In this document: positions 1,604 to 27,610 of the stretch, piece after piece
How the letters are laid out: every line of letters begins with the position of its first letter
Numbering within the stretch: position 1 is the first letter of the stretch
IMG/VR virus record: IMGVR_UViG_3300044959_000131
Coordinates: 1 to 64,000 of that record
Direction: 5' to 3' (one strand)
Source of the DNA: a virus
DNA: 64,000 nucleotides
Notes under the pieces: generated by a model
What the model was told of the DNA's origin: nothing
Database searches by the model: none
What the model saw: the letters and a program-made list of their open reading frames with translations, nothing else
Position numbers and translations under genes: made by a program

Positions 1604-1978
1604 ATGATGAACCCCGAAAAGGTTCTTCCACGTGAAAACTGGGTATTGGTACTCGATGACAAGAGGAAGAAAGAGACATCTGGAGGGATCGTACTTCCAG
1701 ATGAGGAAACGGGAATCGAAAAGGTAACAGAGGGGTCTGGAACTGTTATCAGAGTTGGCCGTGGGGAAAAGAATCATCGACTCGGTCTTGAAAATGGCGT
1801 CCGTGTCGTTTACCGCGCCTTCTTGAAGCACGCGCATCGACTGGATACCGATGAAACGTGGGATGATGGACAGCGGAAGCACTACTTCCTGATGAGCTCA
1901 GATGATATTCTCGCTGTCATTGCGCCTGGTGTGAGTGTCGGCGTGTTCTCTGGACGTCCTCAAGTTCGAGAGAAATAA
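1604..1978 (+). CDS. groES: GroES/Cpn10-like co-chaperonin
   Basis: PRENWVLV...ETSGGIVLP...GTVIRVGRG...GVRVVY resembles the Cpn10 signature and mobile loop. Confidence 0.8.
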   Translation: MMNPEKVLPRENWVLVLDDKRKKETSGGIVLPDEETGIEKVTEGSGTVIRVGRGEKNHRLGLENGVRVVYRAFLKHAHRLDTDETWDDGQRKHYFLMSSDDILAVIAPGVSVGVFSGRPQVREK

Positions 1979-6883: not shown

Positions 6884-7761
6884 ATCTCCAAATGCTTAAG
6901 AGCTTCCGTATGGAGCTCGAGAAGATTGCTGCTACACGAGCCCTGAAGGAAATAAGAAGGCTTATACGTTTTGGAAGACTGGCTGAGGCTGACGCTCTCG
7001 CGAGACGTCCAGGTGTCCTCAAACCTACTTTCCTTGGTCATCAAATCCACGATCTCGGTGCTGGCGCTGAAGGTGTCGCAACTCTTACAGCTGGTGGGAC
7101 AGCCCACGGAGGAGGTCTTGGTGTTCAGAAGATTTACCAACCTAAAGGCTTGTCCTCACAAGAGATGATTGCTAGGAAAGAGCAGGCCGGAATGGCTCTC
7201 CGATCCAACCCAATATTTGCTCAATTCCGTGGCTCCCAACAAGGTGTCGGAGGAACGACTGCCCACGCGATGGAATTCGTGCGCGGTAAAGCACCGGAGG
7301 TCTCTCCGCAAACCTATGCCCAAATACGAGCAGCTCGTAGAGGAGTTGTAAAAGGGATGAGGCAGGCAGGTTTTGTTGGAGCGGCGGATGTGCGTCCAGA
7401 AAATATGATTCAGACACCATCCGGGCAAGTTAAAGTCATCGACTATATGCCTATACGGAGAGGGGAGTTTGAATCTGGAAACGTAAGATCGAGTATCAGT
7501 AAGGAGTTGCAGTCTAAGGGTCTTGATCCACTTACCAAGGACGTACTCACCCAAACTCCAGGTACAAATCTCTTACGAGAGAAAATCGAGAAGTACTCTC
7601 CTGGTCAGCTTAAAGCGCTGCATTTCCGAGGAGTCCAACCCAAGACGCAAATTGCTAATAGGCCTATCTCTAAACCAGTAGGAAATCCGACTCGCTCGGA
7701 CAAGATCGTGAAAAATCCATCTCATGTCCCTACGAGACCAATGAGACCATCTGTCTTGTGA
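6880..7761 (+). CDS. Hanks-type Ser/Thr protein kinase-like protein
   Basis: LGAGAEGVA G-loop, VQKIY lysine, MEFV hinge, DVRPENM catalytic loop, VIDY metal-binding loop. Confidence 0.75.
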   Translation: MNLQMLKSFRMELEKIAATRALKEIRRLIRFGRLAEADALARRPGVLKPTFLGHQIHDLGAGAEGVATLTAGGTAHGGGLGVQKIYQPKGLSSQEMIARKEQAGMALRSNPIFAQFRGSQQGVGGTTAHAMEFVRGKAPEVSPQTYAQIRAARRGVVKGMRQAGFVGAADVRPENMIQTPSGQVKVIDYMPIRRGEFESGNVRSSISKELQSKGLDPLTKDVLTQTPGTNLLREKIEKYSPGQLKALHFRGVQPKTQIANRPISKPVGNPTRSDKIVKNPSHVPTRPMRPSVL

Positions 7762-13973: not shown

Positions 13974-14014
13974 GATGCAATGATGATCGAATCAGATTCG
14001 ATCATCATTGCATC
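13974..14014. repeat. perfect inverted repeat, 20-bp arms, 1-nt centre
   Basis: GATGCAATGATGATCGAATC-A-GATTCGATCATCATTGCATC. Confidence 0.95.
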
Positions 14015-14016
14015 AA

Positions 14017-14090
14017 CGACCCCAGCAGGACTCGAACCTGCAACACCTGGCTTAGAAGGCCAGTGCTCTATCCGATTGAGCTATGGGGCC
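14017..14090 (-). tRNA. tRNA-Arg(UCU)
   Basis: Cloverleaf; CTGGC-CTTCTAA-GCCAG; GGTTCGAGTCC; no encoded CCA. Confidence 0.95.
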
Positions 14091-14114
14091 ATCACCGTGC
14101 TTGTCTTCTACGTG

Positions 14115-14187
14115 TGCCTCCGGCAGGATTCGAACCTGCATCGACCTGGATTTTAAGTCCAGCGCTTTACCATTTAGCTACGGAGGC
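14115..14187 (-). tRNA. tRNA-Leu(UAA), short variable region
   Basis: CTGGA-CTTAAAA-TCCAG; 6-nt variable loop; A73. Confidence 0.9.
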
Positions 14188-14192
14188 TAACT

Positions 14193-14750
14193 GTGAGAGT
14201 CATCATCTATGACAAGAACCCGGGAGTAGGATTCACTCAATGGCTCCTGAAGCTATCTTGGTCTATCGGGTGCTGGTTTCAAAAACTCATCGGAGCAGTA
14301 GATGACTACTACGGAGCATCATCTTGGGATGATGCGAAGCAGTGGCTTCTCTCACGGCCGCGCCCACTGACAGTTATCCAGTACTGGGGTCATGGGAGCC
14401 CCGCTCGAGTGTGGCTTGCTCAGAAACTCGTTCCATCATATGAATGGCTGACGTTGAAAGAAGCTATAGCCCCAGACTCTCTTCTCTGGTTCAGGGCCTG
14501 TAGTGTCTTTCAAGGAAATTCCGGAATCGACTTCTCGAAAGAGCTCGCTGACGGTCTGAACTGCACCATCGCTGGACACACAAGAGTCATCGGGCTATTT
14601 CAAGGTGGTCTCTACACGCGCAAGCCGCACCAACCACCAAGTTGGTCACCGTTGGAGGGAACGACGCGGGGTTGGTTGCCAGACCATTTGAAGTGGTGGA
14701 ACAAGAACACCATATTCTGTCTTAGAACCAAAGTCCCCGAGGGTTGGTAA
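14193..14750 (+). CDS. caspase/CHAT-fold (DUF4347-like) putative cysteine peptidase
   Basis: IQYWGHG...LWFRACS His-Gly / Ala-Cys dyad spacing; GGAGG 6 nt before GTG. Confidence 0.55.
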   Translation: MRVIIYDKNPGVGFTQWLLKLSWSIGCWFQKLIGAVDDYYGASSWDDAKQWLLSRPRPLTVIQYWGHGSPARVWLAQKLVPSYEWLTLKEAIAPDSLLWFRACSVFQGNSGIDFSKELADGLNCTIAGHTRVIGLFQGGLYTRKPHQPPSWSPLEGTTRGWLPDHLKWWNKNTIFCLRTKVPEGW

Positions 14751-14782
14751 AGTAGAAGAATCTGCCGAATTTTCCGTCGTAG

Positions 14783-15049
14783 TCACTTGAATCTCTTGTT
14801 GACGGAAGCGATGAGGGCCTCGGCGAGGTCCACGTACATCTCGATTTCCGTCTTCAACGCACCGAGCTGCGAAGCGGTAAGCCCAAAGCACATGGCTACT
14901 CTTGAGGCCAATATGGCCGTCGCCACATTCAGCAACTCAGCGCGCGCCACCTTCCAGGATTCGAGGTCGGTCGTGGACGCGAGCATCAAAACATCGCTCA
15001 CTGTGACGGGCTTCACTTCTGGTTCCTTCTGTTCCGTTGGTTCTTTCAT
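14783..15049 (-). CDS. hypothetical protein
   Basis: Listed ORF extends into tRNA-Ser; real start is probably 15049 (or 15112). Confidence 0.55.
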   Translation of the reverse strand: MKEPTEQKEPEVKPVTVSDVLMLASTTDLESWKVARAELLNVATAILASRVAMCFGLTASQLGALKTEIEMYVDLAEALIASVNKRFK

Positions 15050-15114
15050 TTCTTCACCCCCTTCTTTTTGACGAACAGTTTCTGGCGCGTTTAGGCTCAC
15101 TGCTTTTGACATTG

Positions 15115-15202
15115 TGGAAGAGGTGAGATTCGAACTCACGGGGCCTTTCAGGGGCCCTCCGGTTTTCAAGACCGGTGCCTTAAGCCGCTCGGCCACTCTT
15201 CC
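15115..15202 (-). tRNA. tRNA-Ser(UGA)
   Basis: CCGGT-CTTGAAA-ACCGG, long variable arm. Confidence 0.95.
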
Positions 15203-15249
15203 ATAGTCCAGCTCATCTGAGACGCCAGACGAGAAGGAGTTATTTCGAT

Positions 15250-15798
15250 TCAGTTGTCGTTATCTATTTCCGTGTGCCAGTAGGCTACGGACTTCATCCA
15301 TTGCTTCCAAGCGTCCGGCATTCCTTTCTGCCATGTAAATGTGATGTTGAATGTGTATGGAAGCTTATTAGGCTTTGTTGGTCTCTGAATCAAGTTCATA
15401 TTTGCTTGCTCAGGAGTACGACCAGCCTTCTTCTGGTTACATGGCGTGCAGCATACAACGACGTTCTCCCATGTCGTCGGACCACCTTGTGACCGTGGAA
15501 TGACGTGATCATAGGTGAAGTCGCTTCTCGGAACCTTGACTCCGCAGTACTGACATTTTCCGTTGTCCCTCAAGTAGACGTTCTCTCTCGAGAATCTGAT
15601 CGCCCTCTTACGTCCTCTGATGGATCTGAGGAGTCTGATCACACACGGCATCTTGAATTGAAGCGTAACGGAGCGAACGATTCTATCTTCGTACTCCTCT
15701 ACGACCTCAACCTTCCCTTCCCAGAGCAGAGTAATCGCCCTCTGCCAAGATACTTTTGCTATCGGCTCATAAGAAATACTCAGGACCAGAGTGTCCAT
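15250..15798 (-). CDS. HNH endonuclease
   Basis: RENVYLRD..KCQYCG...TYDHVIPRSQGG...WENVVVCCTPCNQKK. Confidence 0.9.
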   Translation of the reverse strand: MDTLVLSISYEPIAKVSWQRAITLLWEGKVEVVEEYEDRIVRSVTLQFKMPCVIRLLRSIRGRKRAIRFSRENVYLRDNGKCQYCGVKVPRSDFTYDHVIPRSQGGPTTWENVVVCCTPCNQKKAGRTPEQANMNLIQRPTKPNKLPYTFNITFTWQKGMPDAWKQWMKSVAYWHTEIDNDN

Positions 15799-15818
15799 CC
15801 GTCGAGCCTCATTACCAA

Positions 15819-15897
15819 TGCCCCGGGAGGGAATCGAACCCTCACGCCTGAGCAGCGGATTTTGAGTCCGCCGTGTCTACCGTTCCACCACCGGGGC
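15819..15897 (-). tRNA. tRNA-Leu(CAA)
   Basis: GCGGA-CTCAAAA-TCCGC, extended variable arm. Confidence 0.93.
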
Positions 15898-15899
15898 GT

Positions 15900-16082
15900 T
15901 CACAATTCAATTCGGTACGGTGACCGATGCGCCCCACATTTTGTACACTCCCCAGTAGATTCGAATAGATGCTCAGTCTCAGACTTGCAGTACTCTGTTC
16001 TCTCCTTTCTTCTGAACAAACTTTCGGCCTTATTGGCCTTTCCTAACTCCATATCTTCCTTGGTCAACATGCTTGTCATCAT
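15900..16082 (-). CDS. small hypothetical Zn-finger protein
   Basis: C...H...ECTKCG; GGAG SD; fills the gap between tRNAs. Confidence 0.55.
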   Translation of the reverse strand: MMTSMLTKEDMELGKANKAESLFRRKERTEYCKSETEHLFESTGECTKCGAHRSPYRIEL

Positions 16083-16104
16083 CGTACCTTACTCCACTCC
16101 TTTT

Positions 16105-16186
16105 TGGGCCAGGAGAGACTCGAACTCTCACGCCTGTTAGGCGCCGGATCCTAAGTCCGGTGCGTCTACCATTCCGCCACTAGCCC
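16105..16186 (-). tRNA. tRNA-Leu(UAG)
   Basis: CCGGA-CTTAGGA-TCCGG, long variable arm. Confidence 0.95.
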
Positions 16187-16191
16187 GTACC

Positions 16192-16356
16192 TCAATGAGG
16201 TTTTTTGACCGTGAAGCCAGAACCTATGCACATTCCACTATAGGCATAGTGCGGTGAGTATCCTCCCTTCTTCGTGATATCTACAATTTTCGAACACCAC
16301 GGGCACTTTACCTTCTTTGTCCCACTCTTCGTCTTCTTAACGTTCTTCTTAGGCAT
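16192..16356 (-). CDS. small basic Zn-finger protein
   Basis: KCPWC...H...C; start refined to 16356. Confidence 0.5.
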   Translation of the reverse strand: MPKKNVKKTKSGTKKVKCPWCSKIVDITKKGGYSPHYAYSGMCIGSGFTVKKPH

Positions 16357-16546
16357 GCTCATTCGTAACGTTCTTAGGCACTTGTTCAGGGCTGGAGTGG
16401 CTGGTGAGGTGCCATCCATCACAATACTTACAACGATATGCACGTTGGCCGTGCTTATGAGCTTCTCTTCTCGCTTGGCCTTCGTGCTTGAACTTCACCT
16501 TCCTTGAACAGCTCTTCCACATCTTCCACGCTTTCCAGTCTGTCAT
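16349..16546 (-). CDS. small phage Zn-finger protein
   Basis: CSRKVKF...RAYRCKYCDGWHLTS; start refined to just after tRNA-Val. Confidence 0.65.
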   Translation of the reverse strand: MTDWKAWKMWKSCSRKVKFKHEGQARREAHKHGQRAYRCKYCDGWHLTSHSSPEQVPKNVTNEHA

Positions 16547-16547
16547 G

Positions 16548-16620
16548 TGGCCGACCCCGGAATTGAACCGGGCCCTCCGGTGTGTAAGACCAGCGCTCTC
16601 ACCAAGTGAGCTAGTCAGCC
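16548..16620 (-). tRNA. tRNA-Val(UAC)
   Basis: CTGGT-CTTACAC-ACCGG. Confidence 0.93.
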
Positions 16621-16640
16621 GGTTACGGTTATATATTTTG

Positions 16641-16713
16641 TGGACTCCACGGGAGTCGAACCCGTCACCTCCGCCGTGCAAAGGCGGCGCTCTACCAGAT
16701 GAGCTAGGAGCCC
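16641..16713 (-). tRNA. tRNA-Ala(UGC)
   Basis: CCGCC-TTTGCAC-GGCGG; G3:U70 identity pair present. Confidence 0.95.
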
Positions 16714-16746
16714 AAGTACGGTACCTGTCCGCATCTCCTTAAGTGA

Positions 16747-16789
16747 TAATAGATGGATTCAGACCATAATGGTCTGAATCCATCTATTA
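16747..16789. repeat. perfect inverted repeat, 21-bp arms, 1-nt centre
   Basis: TAATAGATGGATTCAGACCAT-A-ATGGTCTGAATCCATCTATTA. Confidence 0.95.
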
Positions 16790-16816
16790 CTTATACCAAG
16801 AGAGGGAGTCTTTTTC
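16788..16816 (-). promoter_or_regulatory. candidate phage promoter (A-tract...GGTATAAGTA)
   Basis: Same 10-mer recurs at 28394-28403; the core GTATAAGT also occurs at 27778-27785. Confidence 0.5.
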
Positions 16817-16819
16817 GAT

Positions 16820-17059
16820 TCAATCCGAGATGAGCTCGGCTTCGATCTTCTTCTTTTTCAGTCGAGCAAGTGCCTTCTTTGCGGAGCTTTCGTCCTTGAA
16901 TAAGAAGCTGATATCGCGAATCCTTGTAACGAGGTTCGTCCCTGCTCCTTCTTCTGGACGTCCGACGATTCCACGAATAGTGGAGTCGAGACCGAACCCT
17001 GGGTAGCGGTCGATGTCGTAATACACGTTCAGCCGGAACGACTTGGACTGCTTCCTCAT
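16820..17059 (-). CDS. hypothetical protein
   Basis: AAGGAG SD before ATG 17059. Confidence 0.65.
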   Translation of the reverse strand: MRKQSKSFRLNVYYDIDRYPGFGLDSTIRGIVGRPEEGAGTNLVTRIRDISFLFKDESSAKKALARLKKKKIEAELISD

Positions 17060-17104
17060 TACAAGTGCTCTCCTTTGTTTATGGGTCCACAATTCTTGAG
17101 ATCT

Positions 17105-17554
17105 TCAATTCTTGAGATCTTCTACGTACCACTCCAACTGACGTTCGCTCCATCTACGACGAAGTGTGCGAACGAACTTGCGGCCGTGTTTCGATACTAT
17201 CGTAACGTTGATGTACTTCGGTCTTGCGAAGTCGAAGGCCAGTTCCCACATTTTTAATGCGATGCCGCGCCTTCTATACGCCGCCTCGACCCATGTACCA
17301 GCGGCATGTAGTTCCGGCACAGGATGGTCGTCTTTGGTTGGGTACTCGAACACGTTGAATCGAAAGAATCCGATGACTCTATGGTTTGTCGTCGCGACAA
17401 TAACGTAATCGCAAGGAAGATACGCCCACTCCTTGAAAAAATTATGCCCATGATTAGAAATTCTTGGACGTTGAACGTGCGATGTGAAAGGCCCTGCGAG
17501 GTAGTGCGTTGAGCTGATTCTATAGTTGATACGCTTTGTTGGGTCTAGCGTCAT
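17105..17554 (-). CDS. GNAT-family acetyltransferase
   Basis: WVEAAYRRRGIALKMW acetyl-CoA binding motif; start refined to the ATGA overlap at 17554. Confidence 0.7.
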   Translation of the reverse strand: MTLDPTKRINYRISSTHYLAGPFTSHVQRPRISNHGHNFFKEWAYLPCDYVIVATTNHRVIGFFRFNVFEYPTKDDHPVPELHAAGTWVEAAYRRRGIALKMWELAFDFARPKYINVTIVSKHGRKFVRTLRRRWSERQLEWYVEDLKN

Positions 17555-18339
17555 TGCAGCTTCTCCAGCAGCCCAATCCACTCCTGCATGCTGCTGCGGA
17601 GGCAGGACAGACACACTGCGCTCGTCATCCACGAGTCGTTGTACTGCTTCCACGTCCCGAAGTGCCGTCTTTCCCCGCTTTCGCCGTGGCAGACGATGCA
17701 GCGGCCCGGCTCCACGTTTGCGACTGCAAAACCGTTGTTTTCGACGTGGTAGGCCGGTGCATCTCCCTTCGAGTACTGCCCCGGCGGCTGGATGGTGAAG
17801 AAATTTTCCATGCGCGCACCGAGGTGCCACGAGTGACGCACCTCGTCTGGCGAGTCTATGGCCTCACTTTGTGCAAACCAGATGCACGACAACGGCCCAG
17901 TCTTGTGCTGTGCGACGAATGGCTTCAACTCGTCAGGGACTTGGTGCTTTTTCTGTGAGAAAGAAACGGACGCCGTATTGAGACCAACGCGCAACCCGGC
18001 CGCCTCGAAATGCTTTCTCACGTCTTCTTTGTGTTCCCGCGGCATGAGGGGCACGACAATGCGTAGCGTCCGGGCGGGCACCAACTCGTAGTAGCTGTAC
18101 ACCTTGTTCTCTTCTTCGTCTCTCTCGTGGCGCACACAAATTCCCCTGTCGGTGAGGCGCGAGAGAAACAACTCCACCGGGTTGACGTCCGTCCGGTACC
18201 CGTCCTCTCCGGGGAATTTGTAGTGGGTACCGTGTTTGGCGCAGCAGCTTGCAACGTATGCCGGTCTCTGGCTTGCTTCTTCGACTTTCTTTCTGAGCGA
18301 CTCCAGGCTTTGTTTTTCGGATAGGTTGAGAATGCTCAT
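17551..18339 (-). CDS. hypothetical protein with C-terminal Zn-finger
   Basis: CIVCH...CLSC; GGAGG SD. Confidence 0.65.
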   Translation of the reverse strand: MSILNLSEKQSLESLRKKVEEASQRPAYVASCCAKHGTHYKFPGEDGYRTDVNPVELFLSRLTDRGICVRHERDEEENKVYSYYELVPARTLRIVVPLMPREHKEDVRKHFEAAGLRVGLNTASVSFSQKKHQVPDELKPFVAQHKTGPLSCIWFAQSEAIDSPDEVRHSWHLGARMENFFTIQPPGQYSKGDAPAYHVENNGFAVANVEPGRCIVCHGESGERRHFGTWKQYNDSWMTSAVCLSCLRSSMQEWIGLLEKLQ

Positions 18340-18686
18340 TTCGCCTCCGATTCAGATGTCTGATCGTGATCGTCGGAGAGCTCGTCGAGAACGGACCTCA
18401 CGTCTGGAATTTTGCCCTCGTTGATGATGGTCGCCAGGCGATAGATGACCAAATACCAGTCGTGGTTTTCCCACAGCTTCTGGTCCGCCTTTTCGACTTC
18501 GGTGAGATCGTATGCGGTTTTAACGACTAGGTTTCGCAGGAAGGAACGAGATCCATCGTTTTTCTCGATGTTGATATCTCGTTTCAGATGCGCTTCTTTG
18601 GCCTTGTCGAAATCCAACTCCCTTGCCAGCTCGAAGACGTTTTCTCCAAACCGTTCACTGTTCTCGTCCATGTGACCGTTCAACAT
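18336..18686 (-). CDS. hypothetical protein
   Basis: AGGAG SD, overlap-coupled. Confidence 0.65.
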   Translation of the reverse strand: MLNGHMDENSERFGENVFELARELDFDKAKEAHLKRDINIEKNDGSRSFLRNLVVKTAYDLTEVEKADQKLWENHDWYLVIYRLATIINEGKIPDVRSVLDELSDDHDQTSESEAK

Positions 18687-18689
18687 CTC

Positions 18690-19034
18690 CTAACACACTT
18701 TGTCTTTTCCTGCATTCCTACGAGCCATTATTTCAGCGACTAGCTTCTCATGACCGCGCCTTGCATCTTCCTCATTCGTATATCGACGGCACTCTCTCCA
18801 ACCACCGTCGTAATACGCCATCGTCTCGAAGATGACGGGTTTGTCGGACAGCGGATCATGGTCAATTCCAAGCCACACCGTCGAGACGTACTCACCTTCC
18901 TTGGAAAGAGAAGTCCAACAGATTCGCCAGTATGATTCGTCTCCTCCCCTCTTCCGGAAGAACTCGTCTCTAGATAGAGGAGAACCATCTCTGTCGTAGT
19001 AGATATGACTCCTGTCATGGTGTGTTTTGTCCAC
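18690..19034 (-). CDS. conserved phage hypothetical protein
   Basis: VSTVWLGIDH...FETM...RRY...A..GH pattern recalled from other phages. Confidence 0.7.
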   Translation of the reverse strand: MDKTHHDRSHIYYDRDGSPLSRDEFFRKRGGDESYWRICWTSLSKEGEYVSTVWLGIDHDPLSDKPVIFETMAYYDGGWRECRRYTNEEDARRGHEKLVAEIMARRNAGKDKVC

Positions 19035-19078
19035 AGTGCTTACTCCATAAGAGGAACCAGATCATTTCGATGTTTGCT

Positions 19079-19152
19079 TCTGGGTGGCCGGATTCGAACC
19101 GACGACCTTCTGCTCCCAAGGCAGACGCTCTACCAGGCTGAGCCACACCCAG
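19079..19152 (-). tRNA. tRNA-Pro(UGG)
   Basis: TCTGC-CTTGGGA-GCAGA; C1:G72, A73. Confidence 0.95.
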
Positions 19153-19172
19153 TTAATTGCTATCTGACTTAC

Positions 19173-19400
19173 TTATTCTCCGAGGTACGGAACGTTCTCG
19201 TCTTCCGAAAAGATGAAGTACTGAACGCCATTACGGACGATGGTTTTAGGTGGTGAGTGGTTGACCATCTTGACTCGTTGTCTTGGTGGCCAACTTATGA
19301 ACAGCTTCACTTTCTTGTCTGTCTTACTACTCATCGTCCTTTCGTAGCACTCGATGGCACTTCGAAGAGAAGTGTGTGGGTGTCTCCTGCAAAACTTCAT
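19173..19400 (-). CDS. small basic hypothetical protein
   Basis: 75-aa ORF; true start uncertain. Confidence 0.45.
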   Translation of the reverse strand: MKFCRRHPHTSLRSAIECYERTMSSKTDKKVKLFISWPPRQRVKMVNHSPPKTIVRNGVQYFIFSEDENVPYLGE

Positions 19401-19442
19401 CTTACTGACCTTAGAAGTCGAAACTCATAATTAATAATTTCA

Positions 19443-19476
19443 ACGTGTGACTGGGATAATCCCCCCAGTCACACGT
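19443..19476 (-). terminator. 13-bp hairpin downstream of DUF6745-like gene
   Basis: ACGTGTGACTGGG-8nt-CCCAGTCACACGT, followed by an AT-rich tract. Confidence 0.6.
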
Positions 19477-19490
19477 CGTCTGTATTCACC

Positions 19491-20480
19491 TCAAGGTGTT
19501 ACCTCCCATCCGTTCCAAGCAACACGAACTAGGCGCTGGCGACGCATCTCCTCGAGTGTCTCTCCGGGTCCTTCCAACTCCAGCTCGCTAGGCCGCTCAC
19601 AGAGAATGGCAAACTCGCGGTGCGGCCAGATGAGGCAGCAACTCTCACACAGCGCCGCGTAGGCGCGGGCCCGTAACTCCATGTCGCGCCCAATGTCGAG
19701 TCGCAGTACGTCGAGGGCATAGGATACAGCAGCGGGGCCCCACCACCAGCTGCCAACCGAGAACTGGGCCTCAAGGTAGCGCCGCCAGAGGTCGGCCACA
19801 GCAACGCCCGCCGCACTGTGCAACCCGTAGCACACTGCATCGCCAATCGCTCGATGGGTGGTGTTGCTCACTTCGAAGTGAACCACACGTCGCATTACAC
19901 CATGCACGGCACGATGTACCGCTCCATGCACCGTGTCGCCCACAGCGCTACATAATGCATCCTCCAGCTCTCTGGTCACGCTGTCGTGTACCGCGTCATG
20001 CACCGCCGAATGTACATCGGTGTGCATCAAGTCGCGTACCACGCCTTGCACGACAATAAACACTTCGCCCCGTACTGCGCCGCTGACGGAGTCGTACACC
20101 ACGCTGTCACCAGACAGCTGGAGCGCAGCCCGCGCACCCGCGAGGCACGCCACCAACGGTGACGACGCCCAAATGAGTCGCTTTGGAGGATGAAGTCGAG
20201 AGAGGCGATAGCAGGCGAGTAGAGCAGCCTCTGCTAGCGCCCTGTCGGCGGGCTGTATGCATCGGCCAACAGCAATCCACCGTCGTGCGTGCTCGTCGAG
20301 CTGCGCGCGCTCTTCGTCGGTAAGCGACTCCACACGCTTGCGCAGCGGCCCCTCGCGCTGCGGCAACTCGTCCCGGTACAGACGCGCCACGTCGATGCGG
20401 CCCTGCTCATCGTACCAGTCGCCGAGGACTTCGCGTCCATCGGCGGTGGAGGCGAGGGTGAGTATTTCCTGCTGCGTCAC
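19491..20480 (-). CDS. DUF6745-like protein with internal tetrapeptide repeats
   Basis: RWIAVG...ADRALAE...PPKRLIWASSP; xVHD/AVHG repeats; C-terminal WPHREFAILCERP. Confidence 0.7.
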   Translation of the reverse strand: MTQQEILTLASTADGREVLGDWYDEQGRIDVARLYRDELPQREGPLRKRVESLTDEERAQLDEHARRWIAVGRCIQPADRALAEAALLACYRLSRLHPPKRLIWASSPLVACLAGARAALQLSGDSVVYDSVSGAVRGEVFIVVQGVVRDLMHTDVHSAVHDAVHDSVTRELEDALCSAVGDTVHGAVHRAVHGVMRRVVHFEVSNTTHRAIGDAVCYGLHSAAGVAVADLWRRYLEAQFSVGSWWWGPAAVSYALDVLRLDIGRDMELRARAYAALCESCCLIWPHREFAILCERPSELELEGPGETLEEMRRQRLVRVAWNGWEVTP

Positions 20481-20542
20481 AGAATCACCTCGACGAGGAG
20501 AAAATCATCGCGCAGCCTCTGTCGGCATGGTGCCCTCCATTC

Positions 20543-20797
20543 CTACGCCTTGAGCGGTGATGATGGCGTAGTCACCTCTTGTTTCCTACGAGGCACAGCC
20601 AGCAGGCGCTCCCCTTCTGCCTTGTACTCCGCCCTCTTCTTCTCGTTTTTCTCTTTCTTCGCTCGATCAAGAAACATCATCGCTTGTTGGCAGCGGTGGC
20701 ATTCCTTACCCAGACCCTTGTGGCCACACTTGAACAATCGACGCATGTACGTACTCCCTTTTGGTGGATACTTCGTTTCGTGACGCACGACCATCAT
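20543..20797 (-). CDS. small basic Zn-binding hypothetical protein
   Basis: FKCGH...CHRC. Confidence 0.55.
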   Translation of the reverse strand: MMVVRHETKYPPKGSTYMRRLFKCGHKGLGKECHRCQQAMMFLDRAKKEKNEKKRAEYKAEGERLLAVPRRKQEVTTPSSPLKA

Positions 20798-20803
20798 GTG
20801 TAG

Positions 20804-21082
20804 TCAGAGCGTCAAACTCACTGTGACGCGCCAACGACAATTCGGACAAATACTACTCCAAGCAATTTGATCAAAGCGTGGTCCTTGGAGCAGTAGAACC
20901 AGTGGTCTCCCACAGACACATGTCGTGGGCATCTCTGTAAAGTTCATCGGCTTAGTCTTCGACTTCCTGTGACAGCGACTTTTCGCGGAAAACTCTTTCG
21001 AAGAGGCCTTCTTCTCTTTCTCCTTCGTTATCTTCATCTTGAGCATCGTGTCCTCGGATCCAGATCCGTCCAAATAGCCCAC
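20804..21082 (-). CDS. small Zn-ribbon hypothetical protein
   Basis: TCVCG...ICPNC. Confidence 0.5.
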   Translation of the reverse strand: MGYLDGSGSEDTMLKMKITKEKEKKASSKEFSAKSRCHRKSKTKPMNFTEMPTTCVCGRPLVLLLQGPRFDQIAWSSICPNCRWRVTVSLTL

Positions 21083-21098
21083 ACGATATCGAACGTAC

Positions 21099-21470
21099 CT
21101 ACTCCCTCCTTTCTAGAATTGAATCGATTACCTCTATGATCTCTCGTCGAGATATTGGCTTCGTCAATACTGCGTTCGCACCGGCCAAGCTCGAATCTCG
21201 TTGTAAATCTCCGCTCCCGCCCGTCAAAACGACGATGGGCGTATCTTTGAGTTTTTCATCTGCCCGAATTGATCTCACCAAGGCGATTCCATCCATCACC
21301 GGCATCATGAGGTCTGTGATGATGAGGTCTGGCTCGAACTGCCTGGCCATTCCATATCCCTCAAGACCGTTCTTGGCCTCGTATATTTTGTAGCTCAGTC
21401 GAACGAGGAAGAGCTTGAGAATTGTACGGATCGGTTCCTCGTCCTCAACGATGAGAATCTTCTTTGTCAT
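21099..21470 (-). CDS. single-domain response regulator receiver (CheY-like)
   Basis: ILIVEDE, DLIITDLMMPVMDG (phospho-Asp), VVLTG, LTKP. Confidence 0.92.
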   Translation of the reverse strand: MTKKILIVEDEEPIRTILKLFLVRLSYKIYEAKNGLEGYGMARQFEPDLIITDLMMPVMDGIALVRSIRADEKLKDTPIVVLTGGSGDLQRDSSLAGANAVLTKPISRREIIEVIDSILERRE

Positions 21471-21510
21471 GAGTGTAGTTATTTTCTCATGACTTGATAT
21501 GTGGGAAGTA

Positions 21511-21583
21511 TTGGCCCGGCGGGACTCGAACCCGCATCTGTTCGGTTATGAGCCGACGGCTCTACCAATTGAGCTACAGGCCA
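21511..21583 (-). tRNA. tRNA(CAU), probably Ile2 (lysidine type)
   Basis: CTCATAA loop; C4:G69 and C5:G68 (TilS determinants); not initiator-like. Confidence 0.8.
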
Positions 21584-21584
21584 G

Positions 21585-21656
21585 AGCCCACAGAGGGATT
21601 CGAACCCCCGACCTGTCGCTTACAAAGCGAAAGCTCTACCACTGAGCTATGTGGGC
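21585..21656 (-). tRNA. tRNA-Thr(UGU)
   Basis: TCGC-TTTGTAA-GCGA. Confidence 0.93.
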
Positions 21657-21662
21657 TTCGTT

Positions 21663-21733
21663 CTGGGGCGCAGGGACTCGAACCCTGATGCGTGGCTTCA
21701 AAGGCCACTGTCCTACCTTTAGACGACACCCCA
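21663..21733 (-). tRNA. tRNA-Gln(UUG)
   Basis: GTGGC-CTTTGAA-GCCAC; U1:A72, G73. Confidence 0.93.
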
Positions 21734-21740
21734 ACTACAT

Positions 21741-22217
21741 TTATTTTAGATGGACGACAGTAACCATCGTCTCAGCACCGGCGTCGAAGATTTGATCTTC
21801 GGTGTCAAATATTCCCTCGTCCCTGTAGAACTCTTTGTAGACGATTCGATTGATACCAGCGTTGGCGATTAGCTTGAAGCATGTCCAACATGGAGATGTT
21901 GTAGTGTAGATTGTCGATCCATCGAGTCTTACTCCGTTTTTCGCGGCTTGTACGATAGCGTTGGCCTCTGCATGAACCGTCCTCACGCAGTGACCATTGT
22001 GCATCATGCAGCCAATGTCTATATTTCCATCCTCGCAGTGTAGGGATCCTCTGATAGAACCATTGTAGCCAGTTGAAAGAATGATTCGGTCCCGGACGAT
22101 GACGGCGCCTACGTGTTTCCTTGGGCAAGTTGCTCGCGTCGATACTTCTCGCGCAATTCTCATGAAGTAACGGTCCCAGTCTAACCTCTTCTTCTGAAGC
22201 TTCTTCTTTCTCTTCAT
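21741..22217 (-). CDS. dCMP deaminase (ComEB/cytidine-deoxycytidylate deaminase family)
   Basis: RATCPRKHVGAVIV...GYNG...HAEANA...PCWTC. Confidence 0.92.
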   Translation of the reverse strand: MKRKKKLQKKRLDWDRYFMRIAREVSTRATCPRKHVGAVIVRDRIILSTGYNGSIRGSLHCEDGNIDIGCMMHNGHCVRTVHAEANAIVQAAKNGVRLDGSTIYTTTSPCWTCFKLIANAGINRIVYKEFYRDEGIFDTEDQIFDAGAETMVTVVHLK

Positions 22218-22247
22218 AAAGTCTCAAAGATGATGAAGGAGTTGAAG

Positions 22248-22319
22248 AGCGGGCGAAGGGAATCGAACCCTCGACATTCAGCTTGGAAGGCTGACGTTCT
22301 ACCTCTGAACTACGCCCGC
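22248..22319 (-). tRNA. tRNA-Gly(UCC)
   Basis: TCAGC-CTTCCAA-GCTGA; U73. Confidence 0.95.
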
Positions 22320-22320
22320 A

Positions 22321-22627
22321 GACGACATCGTAAAGAGTAACTATGTCGGTTAGAGGTTCACTGCTAACTTCACATAGACCATTCCCGCATAGGTCGCGAC
22401 CCTAGTCCTCTCCGAATCTACCCCGCTCATTTCGAGCTTTCACGGGCTCGCCATGAGCGGATTCGGCTGTGCTTAACCTCTCCAGGGGCCTAGACAAGGA
22501 TGAGTTGTTGTCTAGGGATTCAAGGATTGGCGTCCACTTTATGTGTGGCTCGCTTACACCACGGGTAGCAGTCTATACAGTTGAGTTATCTATAAGCATT
22601 TGTGCTCGATTACTACAATCAAATGAT
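22321..22627 (-). ncRNA. candidate structured non-coding RNA of unknown class
   Basis: No credible ORF; nested stems 22412-22466, 9-bp stem 22489-22516, stems 22341-22377; lies between tRNA-Lys and tRNA-Gly. Confidence 0.55.
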
Positions 22628-22699
22628 TACCGCCGGAGGGAATTGAACCCTCGACCCTTCGCTTAAAAGGCGAGTGCTCTACCACTGAGCTACGGCGGT
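22628..22699 (-). tRNA. tRNA-Lys(UUU)
   Basis: TCGC-CTTTTAA-GCGA. Confidence 0.93.
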
Positions 22700-22739
22700 T
22701 TGATATTCGGACTTCAGCTTCAACAGGTTTTGGAGTCGC

Positions 22740-24661: not shown

Positions 24662-27610
24662 CTACCGAATTGGGCAACCGCCTTTGCACTCGTCCTCGAC
24701 CTGTACGACTTCCTTACGACCTGTATAGGCGTCCCACTCTTCCTTGCTTACCTTCTGGTATGGGGCATTCTTTCGGCTCTTCTCCGGGAAGAACGTTGTT
24801 CCTTTGATGAATGGGATGGCCTCGATGAAGAGCCTCTCCATCTCTTCCTCAGAGGGCATCTTGTCCTCTGGCATGTTGATTGTGAAAGAGATAGCGTTGT
24901 CGGCGTAGCATTCCTGTAACATCATCTGCGTGCCCAAGGAGTCTTCGAGGCTGATCTCATCTTGACTCTCGATGAGTTCGTCTGGGTCGAGACCTTTTGA
25001 TCTGAGAATCTCCATTATCGGATCCTCGCACCAGTACTCGACAATCTCGGTATTATTCGCGTCTTCGTCTTTGTATGTCTTGTATCCCTCAATCTTCTTT
25101 ACCTGGAGCTCTGGGTCCGTATCAGCGTATCTGACGAGCCTCTTGAACCTCTTGTAAATGATGGCTTGCCCACTTGCCGATACACCCGGCATGAGGGAAA
25201 TGGTTCCTGTTGGAGCAAGAGCAGTATTCTTTACCGGAGTCGGAATTCCCAACATCTGAGAGTAACGACGTGCCTCGCTTTCTACGACGTTCTTGAAACG
25301 TCGCAGCTCTTGCTTGACGTTTTCATTCTTCCAGGCAGATGAATACTTTTCTTGGAATCGAAGAGCGAGCCATCCATGGTATCCTAAGAATCCGACTCCG
25401 ATTCTGCGGTTCCTTGATACGACCTCCCGCTGGCGAGGTTGTGGAATGTCGCCGTATGTGGCTCTGATGAGCCATCTTGTCATCAACCTGAATGCTTCCT
25501 CTGCATCAGCTTGAGGTCGGTTCGCGAAATACTGCAGGTTGACGTGTCCCAAGTTGCAGTTGCAAGTCAAGACACCTGCGGCAAGTGTGAACCTCTCGAC
25601 ACCTGGAACCGTCACGCAGTAGACCGGCACCTTCTCTTCAAGAGGTTCGATGGACACCACCTGCCACGCGAGTCCGTCTGTATCGGGGCGGCAGAGAGTG
25701 AAGAACATAAGAGGGTTCTTCCTCTTTCCGTAGTTAGTCTCGGTTGTGCCACTATCTTTCGCGGCCCTGAGAACCCAACCCGCTGCGGCTGCATTCTCCC
25801 TCAACCATGTCTCAGCTTGTGGGTGCGAGGATCCGAGGTGTAGGGTCCCATTTTCCTTTTCAGTGGCGTCTGCCATTCCCCAACCAGTGATGAAGCCCGA
25901 GAGGTAGTCTGAACCTTCAGAACCGTCTGGAAACTCTTTGAGGTTCTTCTCGGACTTCAACCACGCCTCAGGAGCCCCGTCGCACGACTGTGGGTAGGTG
26001 AGATGGTCGAAGAACTTGGCCATCTCTTCAGCTTTGTCTCCAAAGAGGCGAATGCGGTGACGCCACGCACCGTCGGCATACTGCCTATCTGCAGAGCCGT
26101 CTCCGAAGATGATGCCGTGTTGAACTCCTTTCTTATAGTCCTCGTTCTTTTCGAACGGGGCAGCGCTCATTGGGATGACGTCACCAACATGGAGAGAGTC
26201 TGTGACAGTACCGTCGATCCTCTCCCAGCGATGATTTGGGGTCACAACGATGTCGACGCGATAGTTGCTCCTCGTTTTCTGATAGCCCTCAGAACCGGTG
26301 TTCCGACGTACTGGGGCGAGTACGACGCGCTGAACGATTTGCTCACCGAATTGCCTGACGACACCAGGCTTCCAGCCCTGCGGTGTTGGTACGGTTACTG
26401 TCTGCCCAACTACGTCGATGAAGCGAACAGCTCCGTACTCTTTCGTTATGAATTTAACGTCACCAGCAAAGCAATTTTCCCACATCTGCAATCCGATTTC
26501 ACCGCACGGATTTGGGCAGAACATCTTCTCTGGCTCTCGCTCCCCTTTCATTGCGAGGCTTCGATTCCAGAGTCCTGGCTCTCCATTCAATCTCTTACCA
26601 AGGATGACTGCTCGAGCCACTTCCTTGGCATGTTTGTCTCCAATCTTGTAGGCCTCGATGAACTCGTCATCGACTTCAACAGAGATGTTCGTACTCCAAT
26701 GCAGTCCATCTGTTCTCTTGCAGTTAATGAACTCGAAGATGTCACTGTCCTTCCAGTTCTTGACAGACATCCTAGACGAACGACGCTTTCCACCTGAAAT
26801 GACACAAGAGGCGAGAATATGGTCCATCATCATTGCGTCGAGAGATGTCAGTCTACGTCCGTGGCAAGAGTTTAACTGCTTGCATACGTCGTGAAGCATC
26901 AAGACGAGAGGACCTGGTCCGCACGAGATTCCGCCAGAAGTTTTTAGAGGAAGGCCACGTGCTCTGATCTTCGACACGTCTATGACGAGCGTGGCCTCCT
27001 CACCTGACGATCGGTCCCATGCGGTCTTGAGCAAGAAATCGATCGCTTCGCACCATCCTTCTCGACTGTCTTCAACGACAAGTCTACTTGCCCTAGAGAG
27101 ACCGTTGTGGTCTGAGATCAGATGGAAGAAGTCCGAGTAGTTTGGGTGGTCTTTTCGGCAGGTGATGTGGAGATCAATTCGGCGGGCGATTGGAGGTAGC
27201 TGCTCCAGATAACGATTCGAGTAGTTCGAACCAACACCTCCTCCCTGCATCAGTTCATCAAATAGGAAAGTGAAGTGGTCTTCCGGCCTCTCTGGATCCC
27301 AGCCCGATGCGTTGCAGTTGAACAGGAACTGACGACCTTTCACACCTGAGGCGTAGAGATGGCGGCCTGCTGGGATAATCCCAAACTCCAGCATCAAGTT
27401 AATTAGCTTCCCTCGTTCATCCGGTTCGATGAAGGAGGAATCTACGAGTGATAGGTTTCCATCGACGGCCCTGATGACAGTTTCTTGATAAGTCTCGTTC
27501 TCGCCGTTCGATTTAGTCCGACTGTAGGAGCGTTTGTATACCTGTTCTCCGATAGGTCCCCACTTCACTCTGTAGTTCTTGATGTTCTCTGGGATTTTGC
27601 TTTCGATCAT
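24662..27610 (-). CDS. nrdJ: class II (AdoCbl-dependent) ribonucleotide reductase, RTPR/NrdJ type, intein-containing
   Basis: PAGR, FNC, NPCGEI, CNL (after the intein), APTGTIS, C-terminal CKGGCPIR redox pair. Confidence 0.92.
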   Translation of the reverse strand: MIESKIPENIKNYRVKWGPIGEQVYKRSYSRTKSNGENETYQETVIRAVDGNLSLVDSSFIEPDERGKLINLMLEFGIIPAGRHLYASGVKGRQFLFNCNASGWDPERPEDHFTFLFDELMQGGGVGSNYSNRYLEQLPPIARRIDLHITCRKDHPNYSDFFHLISDHNGLSRASRLVVEDSREGWCEAIDFLLKTAWDRSSGEEATLVIDVSKIRARGLPLKTSGGISCGPGPLVLMLHDVCKQLNSCHGRRLTSLDAMMMDHILASCVISGGKRRSSRMSVKNWKDSDIFEFINCKRTDGLHWSTNISVEVDDEFIEAYKIGDKHAKEVARAVILGKRLNGEPGLWNRSLAMKGEREPEKMFCPNPCGEIGLQMWENCFAGDVKFITKEYGAVRFIDVVGQTVTVPTPQGWKPGVVRQFGEQIVQRVVLAPVRRNTGSEGYQKTRSNYRVDIVVTPNHRWERIDGTVTDSLHVGDVIPMSAAPFEKNEDYKKGVQHGIIFGDGSADRQYADGAWRHRIRLFGDKAEEMAKFFDHLTYPQSCDGAPEAWLKSEKNLKEFPDGSEGSDYLSGFITGWGMADATEKENGTLHLGSSHPQAETWLRENAAAAGWVLRAAKDSGTTETNYGKRKNPLMFFTLCRPDTDGLAWQVVSIEPLEEKVPVYCVTVPGVERFTLAAGVLTCNCNLGHVNLQYFANRPQADAEEAFRLMTRWLIRATYGDIPQPRQREVVSRNRRIGVGFLGYHGWLALRFQEKYSSAWKNENVKQELRRFKNVVESEARRYSQMLGIPTPVKNTALAPTGTISLMPGVSASGQAIIYKRFKRLVRYADTDPELQVKKIEGYKTYKDEDANNTEIVEYWCEDPIMEILRSKGLDPDELIESQDEISLEDSLGTQMMLQECYADNAISFTINMPEDKMPSEEEMERLFIEAIPFIKGTTFFPEKSRKNAPYQKVSKEEWDAYTGRKEVVQVEDECKGGCPIR
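25559..26473 (-). mobile_element. intein (305 aa) with LAGLIDADG-type homing endonuclease in nrdJ
   Basis: WEN|CFAGD...VTPNHRW...GIIFGDGS...GFITGWGMAD...VYCVTVP...GVLTCN|CNL. Confidence 0.92.

Follow-up and report, generated by a model that had tools for sequence, protein, structure and literature searches.

What occupies the 308 nt that separate two adjacent tRNA genes of an uncultured phage of about 177 kb? This question is raised by positions 22320-22627 of the DNA analysed here, hereafter the window, which comprises 64,000 nt and represents positions 1 to 64,000 of IMG/VR virus record IMGVR_UViG_3300044959_000131 (176,945 bp, approximately 93% complete). ARAGORN placed a minus-strand array of 13 tRNA genes, with small open reading frames (ORFs) interspersed, at bases 14,000-22,700 of the window. 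The interval lies in this array between tRNA-Lys(UUU) (22628..22699, minus strand; 74.1 bits with the Rfam tRNA model), its upstream neighbour, and tRNA-Gly(UCC) (22247..22319, minus strand; 74.3 bits), its downstream neighbour. Since both tRNAs are encoded on the minus strand, the sense of an RNA from this spacer is also the minus strand, with tRNA-Lys first, then the spacer and then tRNA-Gly. An earlier note, made by reading the letters alone, had described the interval as ORF-free and heavily base-paired and had proposed an unclassified structured noncoding RNA (ncRNA) in a phage tRNA array. The analysis presented below supports this proposal: the spacer matches no Rfam family, it has homologues with compensatory changes, and it is not a decayed gene.

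Selection on the spacer between tRNA-Lys and tRNA-Gly

The coding capacity of the spacer was assessed first on its own and then by comparison. The longest minus-strand ORF within 22320-22627 is 31 amino acids long, and a plus-strand ORF of 65 amino acids runs antisense into tRNA-Lys, leaving no credible ORF overall. The ORF check, ARAGORN and Rfam thus agree with the earlier description of an ORF-free gap between a complete tRNA-Lys and a complete tRNA-Gly.

For the comparison we used L085, a Joint Genome Institute (JGI) contig that is the closest relative retrieved. The locus is bordered by an ATP-dependent DNA ligase gene upstream and a dCMP deaminase gene downstream; the ligase of L085 is 92% identical to that of the window, and L085 has the same arrangement of tRNA-Lys, a 314-nt spacer and tRNA-Gly. 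The flanking genes of the two phages are 88-91% identical at the DNA level and only 76-82% identical at third codon positions. Across 22320-22600, the spacer showed 11 differences in 280 nt (3.9%), versus 159 of 707 third codon positions (22.5%) in the flanking ligase, deaminase and response-regulator genes (Fisher p = 1.6e-14). The contrast held for the parts as well. The core (22372-22580) differed by 4.3% versus the same 22.5% (p = 5e-11), and the 3' tail (22320-22371) by 3.8% (p = 6e-4), whereas the leader (22581-22627), with 14.9% differences and 8 gap columns, was indistinguishable from third codon positions. Only the first 47 nt after tRNA-Lys therefore drift freely, and the purifying selection on the spacer is approximately at the level of second codon positions.

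A 1-nt indel separates the window from L085 within the core, and the substitutions are spread over all three phases, only 4 of the 11 falling at third positions of the least-interrupted frame (counted by hand). A hidden reading frame is excluded by this indel and this spread. A coding gene or pseudogene was accordingly rejected: there is no ORF, the core carries an indel, and neither third-position bias nor codon periodicity is seen. Its conservation, the indel and the phase spread show that the interval is not a neutral spacer, and they equally rule out a gene in decay. Together with the structural comparison described below, these results establish that the spacer element is real, under strong selection, noncoding and sense-strand specific, and that it has a conserved secondary structure.

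Homologous copies and the predicted fold

Seven copies of the element were found in five genomes, one each in the window, L085 and L088 and two each in L250 and L273. All of them sit between tRNA-Lys(UUU) and tRNA-Gly(UCC), and tRNA-Lys(UUU) is the upstream neighbour in five of the five genomes. The closer relatives could be reached only by searching for protein homologues and then taking the contigs that encode those proteins. In the spacer of L088, a contig from a metagenome-assembled genome at NCBI whose ligase is 70% identical, three short motifs in the same order as in the window were noticed by eye, and this combination of motifs is absent elsewhere in 2.3 Mb of related phage loci. A covariance model, R1, was built from the window and L085 only, two near-identical sequences. 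It aligned L088:14339-14522 end to end, with an E value of 1e-5 within the spacer and of about 1e-3 in a 67-kb search, and it also matched the domain at L250:1748-1950. R1 gives the distant copies only 15.5 bits, level with some false matches in the 67-kb search, and its result is clear-cut only for a search confined to the spacer.

The genome L250, which is complete at 196.8 kb and bears terminal repeats, came from a GGTCGCG-anchored pattern scan of IMG/VR, and L273 from a second IMG/VR pattern scan with a 15-mer. Their spacers are 717-730 nt long and ORF-free, and each contains two tandem copies of the domain: in L250, the copy at 1748-1950 and a tandem partner at about 2010-2330; in L273, a copy at about 6940-7200 and its tandem partner at 7254-7519. 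These long spacers are hence two tandem units of a 200-320-nt domain and not one giant RNA. In the window, L085, L250 and L273, a distance of 67-73 nt separates tRNA-Lys from the start of the conserved motif UGGUGUAAGCGAG in the first copy.

Other searches delimit this distribution. When blastn and nhmmer were run with the spacer against about 90 loci of deaminase or ligase relatives, L085 alone was found, and blastn of three spacers against 50,697 GenBank phage records returned nothing outside the tRNAs. An exact-pattern scan of IMG/VR with TGGTGTAA..GCGAGC..GACGC gave three chance matches in coding DNA, and scans with GCD and GT variants of the pattern gave only chance matches among the matches listed. 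When about 3 Mb of related loci were scanned with relaxed criteria for structure and motifs, no additional copy appeared. Searches for the locus by way of its proteins, made in IMG/VR, GTDB genomes and the metagenomes of JGI, led only to relatives whose ligases are at most 57% identical, with no copy of the RNA. On the sequences compared here, the RNA appears to be fixed at the Lys(UUU)/Gly(UCC) position in a clade of uncultured phages of 140-200 kb.

The unit common to all seven copies is a core domain of 209 nt (22372..22580, minus strand), closed by a helix termed P1 and predicted to form a multi-helix junction of P1/P1b, P2, the arms P3 and P4, and P5. It is separated from tRNA-Lys by the 5' leader or linker (22581..22627, minus strand), the least conserved part of the spacer. 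Within the core, likewise on the minus strand, P1 would pair UAGACUG (22569..22575) with UGGUCUA (22375-22381), and P1b would pair CCCG (22562-22565) with CGGG (22384-22387). The UGGUGUAAGCGAG motif occupies 22549..22561; its GGUGU is predicted to pair with ACGCC (22529-22533) as P2a, leaving AAGCGAG as a 7-nt bulge, and P2a would enclose the P2 inner hairpin (22534..22548; CCAC, loop ACAUAAA, GUGG). UGGUGUAAGCGAG is identical in six of the seven copies, L088 having a CUC insertion inside it. Next along the RNA are the 9-bp hairpin P3, CCUAGACAA / UUGUCUAGG (22489..22516), and the junction motif UUAAGCAC (22469..22476), which reads UUACGCAC in L085, L088, L250 copy 2 and L273 copy 2 and has the family consensus UUA(C/A)GCAC. 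P4 (22412..22466) is a three-tier hairpin of 19 bp and an exact inverted repeat. P5 (22390..22404) consists of UAGG, the loop GUCGCGA and CCUA.

P3 and P4 are peripheral. P3 is kept in L085 with one loop change and its form varies by lineage, other hairpins replacing it in L088, L250 and L273; P4 is a variable arm too. Both hairpins had been picked out in the earlier note, the three-tier one exactly as found here. The note had also listed GGTCGCGACC as a palindrome, and this turned out to be the most conserved element of the family, the P5 hairpin with its invariant GUCGCG loop, which reads (G/C)UCGCG across the copies.

The 3' tail (22320..22371, minus strand) carries two hairpins, GUUAG/CUAAC (22349-22368) and GACAUAG/CGAUGUC (22324-22347), and ends 4 nt before tRNA-Gly. 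An A-to-C change in L085 makes the last of them (GACAUNG/CGAUGUC) a perfect 7-bp helix, and neither has a clear equivalent in the distant copies. A different pairing of this region, CTATGT with ACATAG, had been suggested before. It is present in the window but is hit by two non-compensatory changes in L085, in which the alternatives to it, P1 and the terminal hairpin, are kept or improved. The long-range complement AGAGGTT/AACCTCT is likewise present in the window; L085 is identical there, the distant copies are not clearly equivalent, and its suggested role as a long-range switch receives no support from the comparative data.

Covariation was counted in a model-guided alignment of the window, L085, L088 and L250 copy 2. 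In this alignment 96.8% of the cells pair, versus 31-47% when the partners are slid by 1-3 columns, and both sides change in 13 of the 24 pairs, a count reached in none of 500 shuffles. Changes on both sides affect five of the seven pairs of P1, two of the four of P1b, and three of four in both P2 and P5. MAFFT was unable to align the copies across the variable arms, and the three remaining copies were therefore aligned by hand and script; they agree with the model-guided result. P1 closes every copy with a sequence that differs per lineage. P2 occurs in five distinct 4-bp versions, all of them Watson-Crick (CCAC/GUGG, CUGC/GCAG, UGGG/CCCA, CUGA/UCAG and CCGU/ACGG), and the partner strand of P2a varies among ACGCC, ACACC, ACGAC and ACAAC, with U.G becoming U-A independently in two lineages. 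The stems of P5 also differ per lineage (UAGG, AAGGGG, GAGAGA, GAGAA, CACAGAG and UGCAGAG), and all are paired around the same loop. P4 of L250 and of L273 copy 2 is different from that of the window, and three double compensatory changes distinguish these two from each other. P1, P2a and P5 repeatedly use G.U and U.G pairs, which would be A.C mismatches on the other strand; this identifies the tRNA strand as the RNA strand.

The GCGA of the bulge is complementary to the UCGC of the P5 loop, with the complementarity extending to 5 bp in L088 and L273 copy 1. A pseudoknot between bulge and loop that locks the fold is thus plausible. Both motifs also resemble the anticodon arm of the tRNA-Lys of the window, with which the bulge shares UAAGCGA and the loop UCGC. 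This likeness was dismissed as chance, since the tRNA-Lys stems of L088 and L273 differ and the RNA motifs are constant.

Known RNAs and competing explanations

All copies were compared with the 4227 covariance models of Rfam 15 (E up to 10 for the window and up to 1 for L085, L088, L250 and L273). No family matched the spacer of any copy, including tmRNA, GOLLD, ROOL, RNase P, signal recognition particle (SRP) RNA, 6S RNA, T-box, group I and II introns, ribozymes and riboswitches. The sole entry in the window spacer was a flavivirus stem-loop model on P4 (16.7 bits, E 5.9), which is at chance level. The earlier statement that the interval bears no hallmark of tmRNA, RNase P, SRP RNA or group I/II introns is in accord with both Rfam 15 and ARAGORN. 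The spacer RNA is a structured ncRNA family without an Rfam entry.

The setting invites comparison with RNAs found in similar places. GOLLD and ROOL, the type named in the earlier note, are large structured ncRNAs whose function is unknown, often from phages or prophages and often beside tRNA genes. The resemblance stands for the tRNA-array setting and fails for sequence and model: no covariance-model match was obtained for the spacer RNA, the conserved motifs differ, and GOLLD and ROOL measure about 600-800 nt versus the 200-320-nt unit described here. An assignment of the long L250 and L273 spacers to GOLLD is not supported either.

That phage tRNA clusters harbour additional stable RNAs of unknown role has been recognised for decades. 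The species 1 and 2 RNAs of T4 (rnaC and rnaD) and the stable RNAs of T5/BF23 are non-tRNA RNAs inside phage tRNA operons, from which the enzymes of tRNA processing free them, and those of T4 and T5 are about 100-140 nt long. The spacer RNA shares their setting, being a noncoding, non-tRNA element on the tRNA strand, flanked by tRNAs within one array, with no ORF and no known function. It differs, in a comparison made by description only, in its core of about 210 nt (300 nt with flanks), its five helices and its probable pseudoknot, and the phages that carry it have not been cultured and bear no relation to T4 or T5. The GenBank collection searched above should include both of these phages, and the three spacers matched only tRNAs in it. 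By analogy of setting, the stable RNAs of the T4 and T5 tRNA clusters would be its closest functional counterparts.

We lean towards a stable, trans-acting structured ncRNA that is released from the tRNA operon transcript by tRNA processing. The RNA would be transcribed within the phage tRNA operon, from the minus strand, between tRNA-Lys(UUU) and tRNA-Gly(UCC), and host tRNA-processing enzymes would free it as a stable molecule of about 300 nt. The RNase P cut at the 5' end of tRNA-Gly would set its 3' end, and trimming of the 3' end of tRNA-Lys would set the other. It may then act in trans during infection, offering the invariant bulge and loop to a specific partner, which may be a protein, a small ligand or another RNA, for instance a tRNA. 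We infer transcription, processing, stability, the pseudoknot and the action in trans from sequence comparison.

Several observations weigh against this explanation. Nothing in the data points to a particular partner or activity. The more distant relatives L009 and L016 manage without the RNA; their tRNA-Lys and tRNA-Gly are 4 nt apart, which makes the RNA an insertion specific to part of the clade. The sample consists of five genomes with seven copies, about four independent lineages, and the pair counts come from an alignment that was fitted to the structure, with P2, P5 and P1 of three copies aligned by hand. One L085 substitution breaks a pair of P4, and P1b is not evident in L273 copy 2. 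Both strands of the pseudoknot are invariant, and it therefore receives no support from covariation. Finally, the folding energy, for which the earlier note had suggested shuffled controls, is only mildly unusual in the window (z -2.67 on the minus strand and -2.38 on the plus strand), and in the L088 spacer it shows nothing out of the ordinary (z +1.1). It is conservation and covariation, not folding energy, that raise the finding above chance.

Other explanations were weighed against the same evidence. The core could be a cis-acting riboswitch or attenuator, in which a ligand aptamer controls read-through into tRNA-Gly and the downstream genes (the dCMP deaminase gene here) and the paired copies of L250 and L273 act as tandem riboswitches. 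Its build resembles that of an aptamer, namely a P1-closed junction with invariant junction nucleotides, variable peripheral stems and a possible pseudoknot, and tandem copies are also seen among riboswitches such as those for glycine; L250 moreover has a short hairpin and a U-run ahead of tRNA-Gly, and the 3' strand of P1 in the window could pair instead with the downstream ACAUAG. Yet neither the downstream gene nor an expression platform is conserved, and no riboswitch family matches the spacer RNA. The downstream protein gene varies, in that the window and L085 have the deaminase gene whereas additional tRNAs or small ORFs follow in L088, L250 and L273; a terminator was looked for in the window spacer and none was found; and the alternative pairing is the one destroyed by the two L085 changes that leave P1 and the terminal hairpin intact. 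We consider a riboswitch unlikely. Less probable still is a ribozyme, self-cleaving or otherwise involved in processing, that would assist in cutting the long transcript of the tRNA operon. Small ribozymes are known beside phage tRNAs, and a compact fold that can accommodate a pseudoknot, keeps its unpaired nucleotides strictly constant and occurs in tandem within a polycistronic tRNA transcript would suit one. No ribozyme family of Rfam matches, however, and the domain abuts neither tRNA, being separated by 50-70 nt from tRNA-Lys and by 50-100 nt from tRNA-Gly, while RNase P and tRNA 3'-end trimming already explain the processing.

It is very improbable that the element is a known RNA diverged past recognition, either a tmRNA-derived or tRNA-like RNA or a fragment of GOLLD or ROOL. 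A tmRNA is likewise an RNA of about 300 nt that is found in or near the tRNA arrays of related phages, with a 5' end made by RNase P. In the distant relatives L008 and L011 (deaminase 63-70% identical), tmRNA genes occur at L008:363-1024, about 3 kb upstream of the deaminase gene, and at L011:5827-6187, beside tRNAs; the window phage has none. ARAGORN found no tmRNA in the window, and the tmRNA model RF00023 scores only the flanking tRNAs, at 12-17 bits versus a cut-off of 47. The spacer shows neither a T-arm nor an acceptor that would make up a tRNA-like domain, and six-frame translation reveals no tag frame; the one frame with a vague similarity acquires a stop upstream of it in L085, so that none is conserved between the two phages. 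GOLLD and ROOL, for their part, match no copy. An element acting at the DNA level, such as what is left of a mobile insertion, or a site bound by proteins (for instance an origin or a recombination site), would fit the status of the interval as an insertion relative to L009 and L016, the presence of mobile genes such as an HNH endonuclease in the tRNA array, and the perfect inverted repeats P3 and P4. Selection nonetheless acts on almost every position and not on a short site, the helices covary with G.U pairs that work on one strand only, and the perfect repeats P3 and P4 are the parts least conserved across lineages. This explanation is also highly unlikely.

A bolder reading is that the RNA represents a new functional RNA class with an activity of its own, as a ribozyme or as a specific binder of a tRNA or a metabolite, in which a pseudoknot of the strictly invariant UGGUGUAAGCGAG and GUCGCG would serve as the active or binding site. 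We regard this as doubtful. In one version, the invariant UGGU could pair with the ACCA at the 3' end of tRNAs, in the manner of the bulge of T-box RNAs and the L15 loop of RNase P, and the RNA could sense, protect or sequester tRNAs during infection; protection could, for example, be directed against host anticodon nucleases that target tRNA-Lys(UUU).

The element adds a well-defined new example to the extra RNAs of phage tRNA clusters, with about 210 nt, an apparent pseudoknot and helices supported by covariation. Its 13-nt and 6-nt motifs are identical or nearly so in all copies, a degree of conservation typical of RNAs that have a catalytic site or a specific partner, and the RNA is small enough for direct biochemistry. 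If it does act on tRNAs or translation, it would be an added mechanism by which large phages commandeer or protect the translation machinery of the host.

Other features of the tRNA island

Gains and losses are concentrated in the tRNA island, and the relatives L086, L100 and L101 are without any tRNA array at this position. In L009 (5611-6012) and L016 (1913-2607), the order Lys(UUU)-Gly(UCC)-Gln(UUG) is kept, and Gln(CUG) is followed by Thr(UGU). In the window, insertions of the RNA and of the deaminase gene interrupt this conserved succession of tRNAs. The HNH homing-endonuclease gene of the window (15250-15798, minus strand) lies within the array between tRNA-Leu(CAA) and tRNA-Ser.

Upstream of tRNA-Lys, the ligase gene of the window stops 40 nt from the tRNA (22700-22739). 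The corresponding stretch of L085 (6263-7504) contains a YpsA/DprA-like (SLOG) gene and a tRNA-Tyr, both of which are missing in the window. The nearest ligase from an isolate is only about 35-36% identical to that of the window phage. An ORF of 75 amino acids beside the RNA in L088 was compared with one of 80 amino acids upstream of tRNA-Lys in L250, and the two are unrelated.

Downstream of the RNA, the short GC hairpin of L250 (about 1672-1690, minus strand), followed by UUUUU directly before tRNA-Gly, is terminator-like and has no counterpart in the window or L273. Rfam tRNA matches of 45 and 39 bits that ARAGORN did not call occur directly after tRNA-Gly(UCC) at L273:7712-7778 and L088:14760-14820, respectively, and may be unconventional or decayed tRNAs. 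A tRNA of ordinary length with the anticodon UCA, labelled SeC by ARAGORN, is located at L273:11165-11236 and may be an opal-suppressor tRNA.

Beyond the ligase side of the array, the window encodes a class II (B12-dependent) ribonucleotide reductase (24662-27610, minus strand). This protein is 982 amino acids long in the window and in L085, versus 683-740 in L086, L088 and L100, and its residues 446-682 give a weak Pfam intein-splicing match, probably reflecting an intein insertion.
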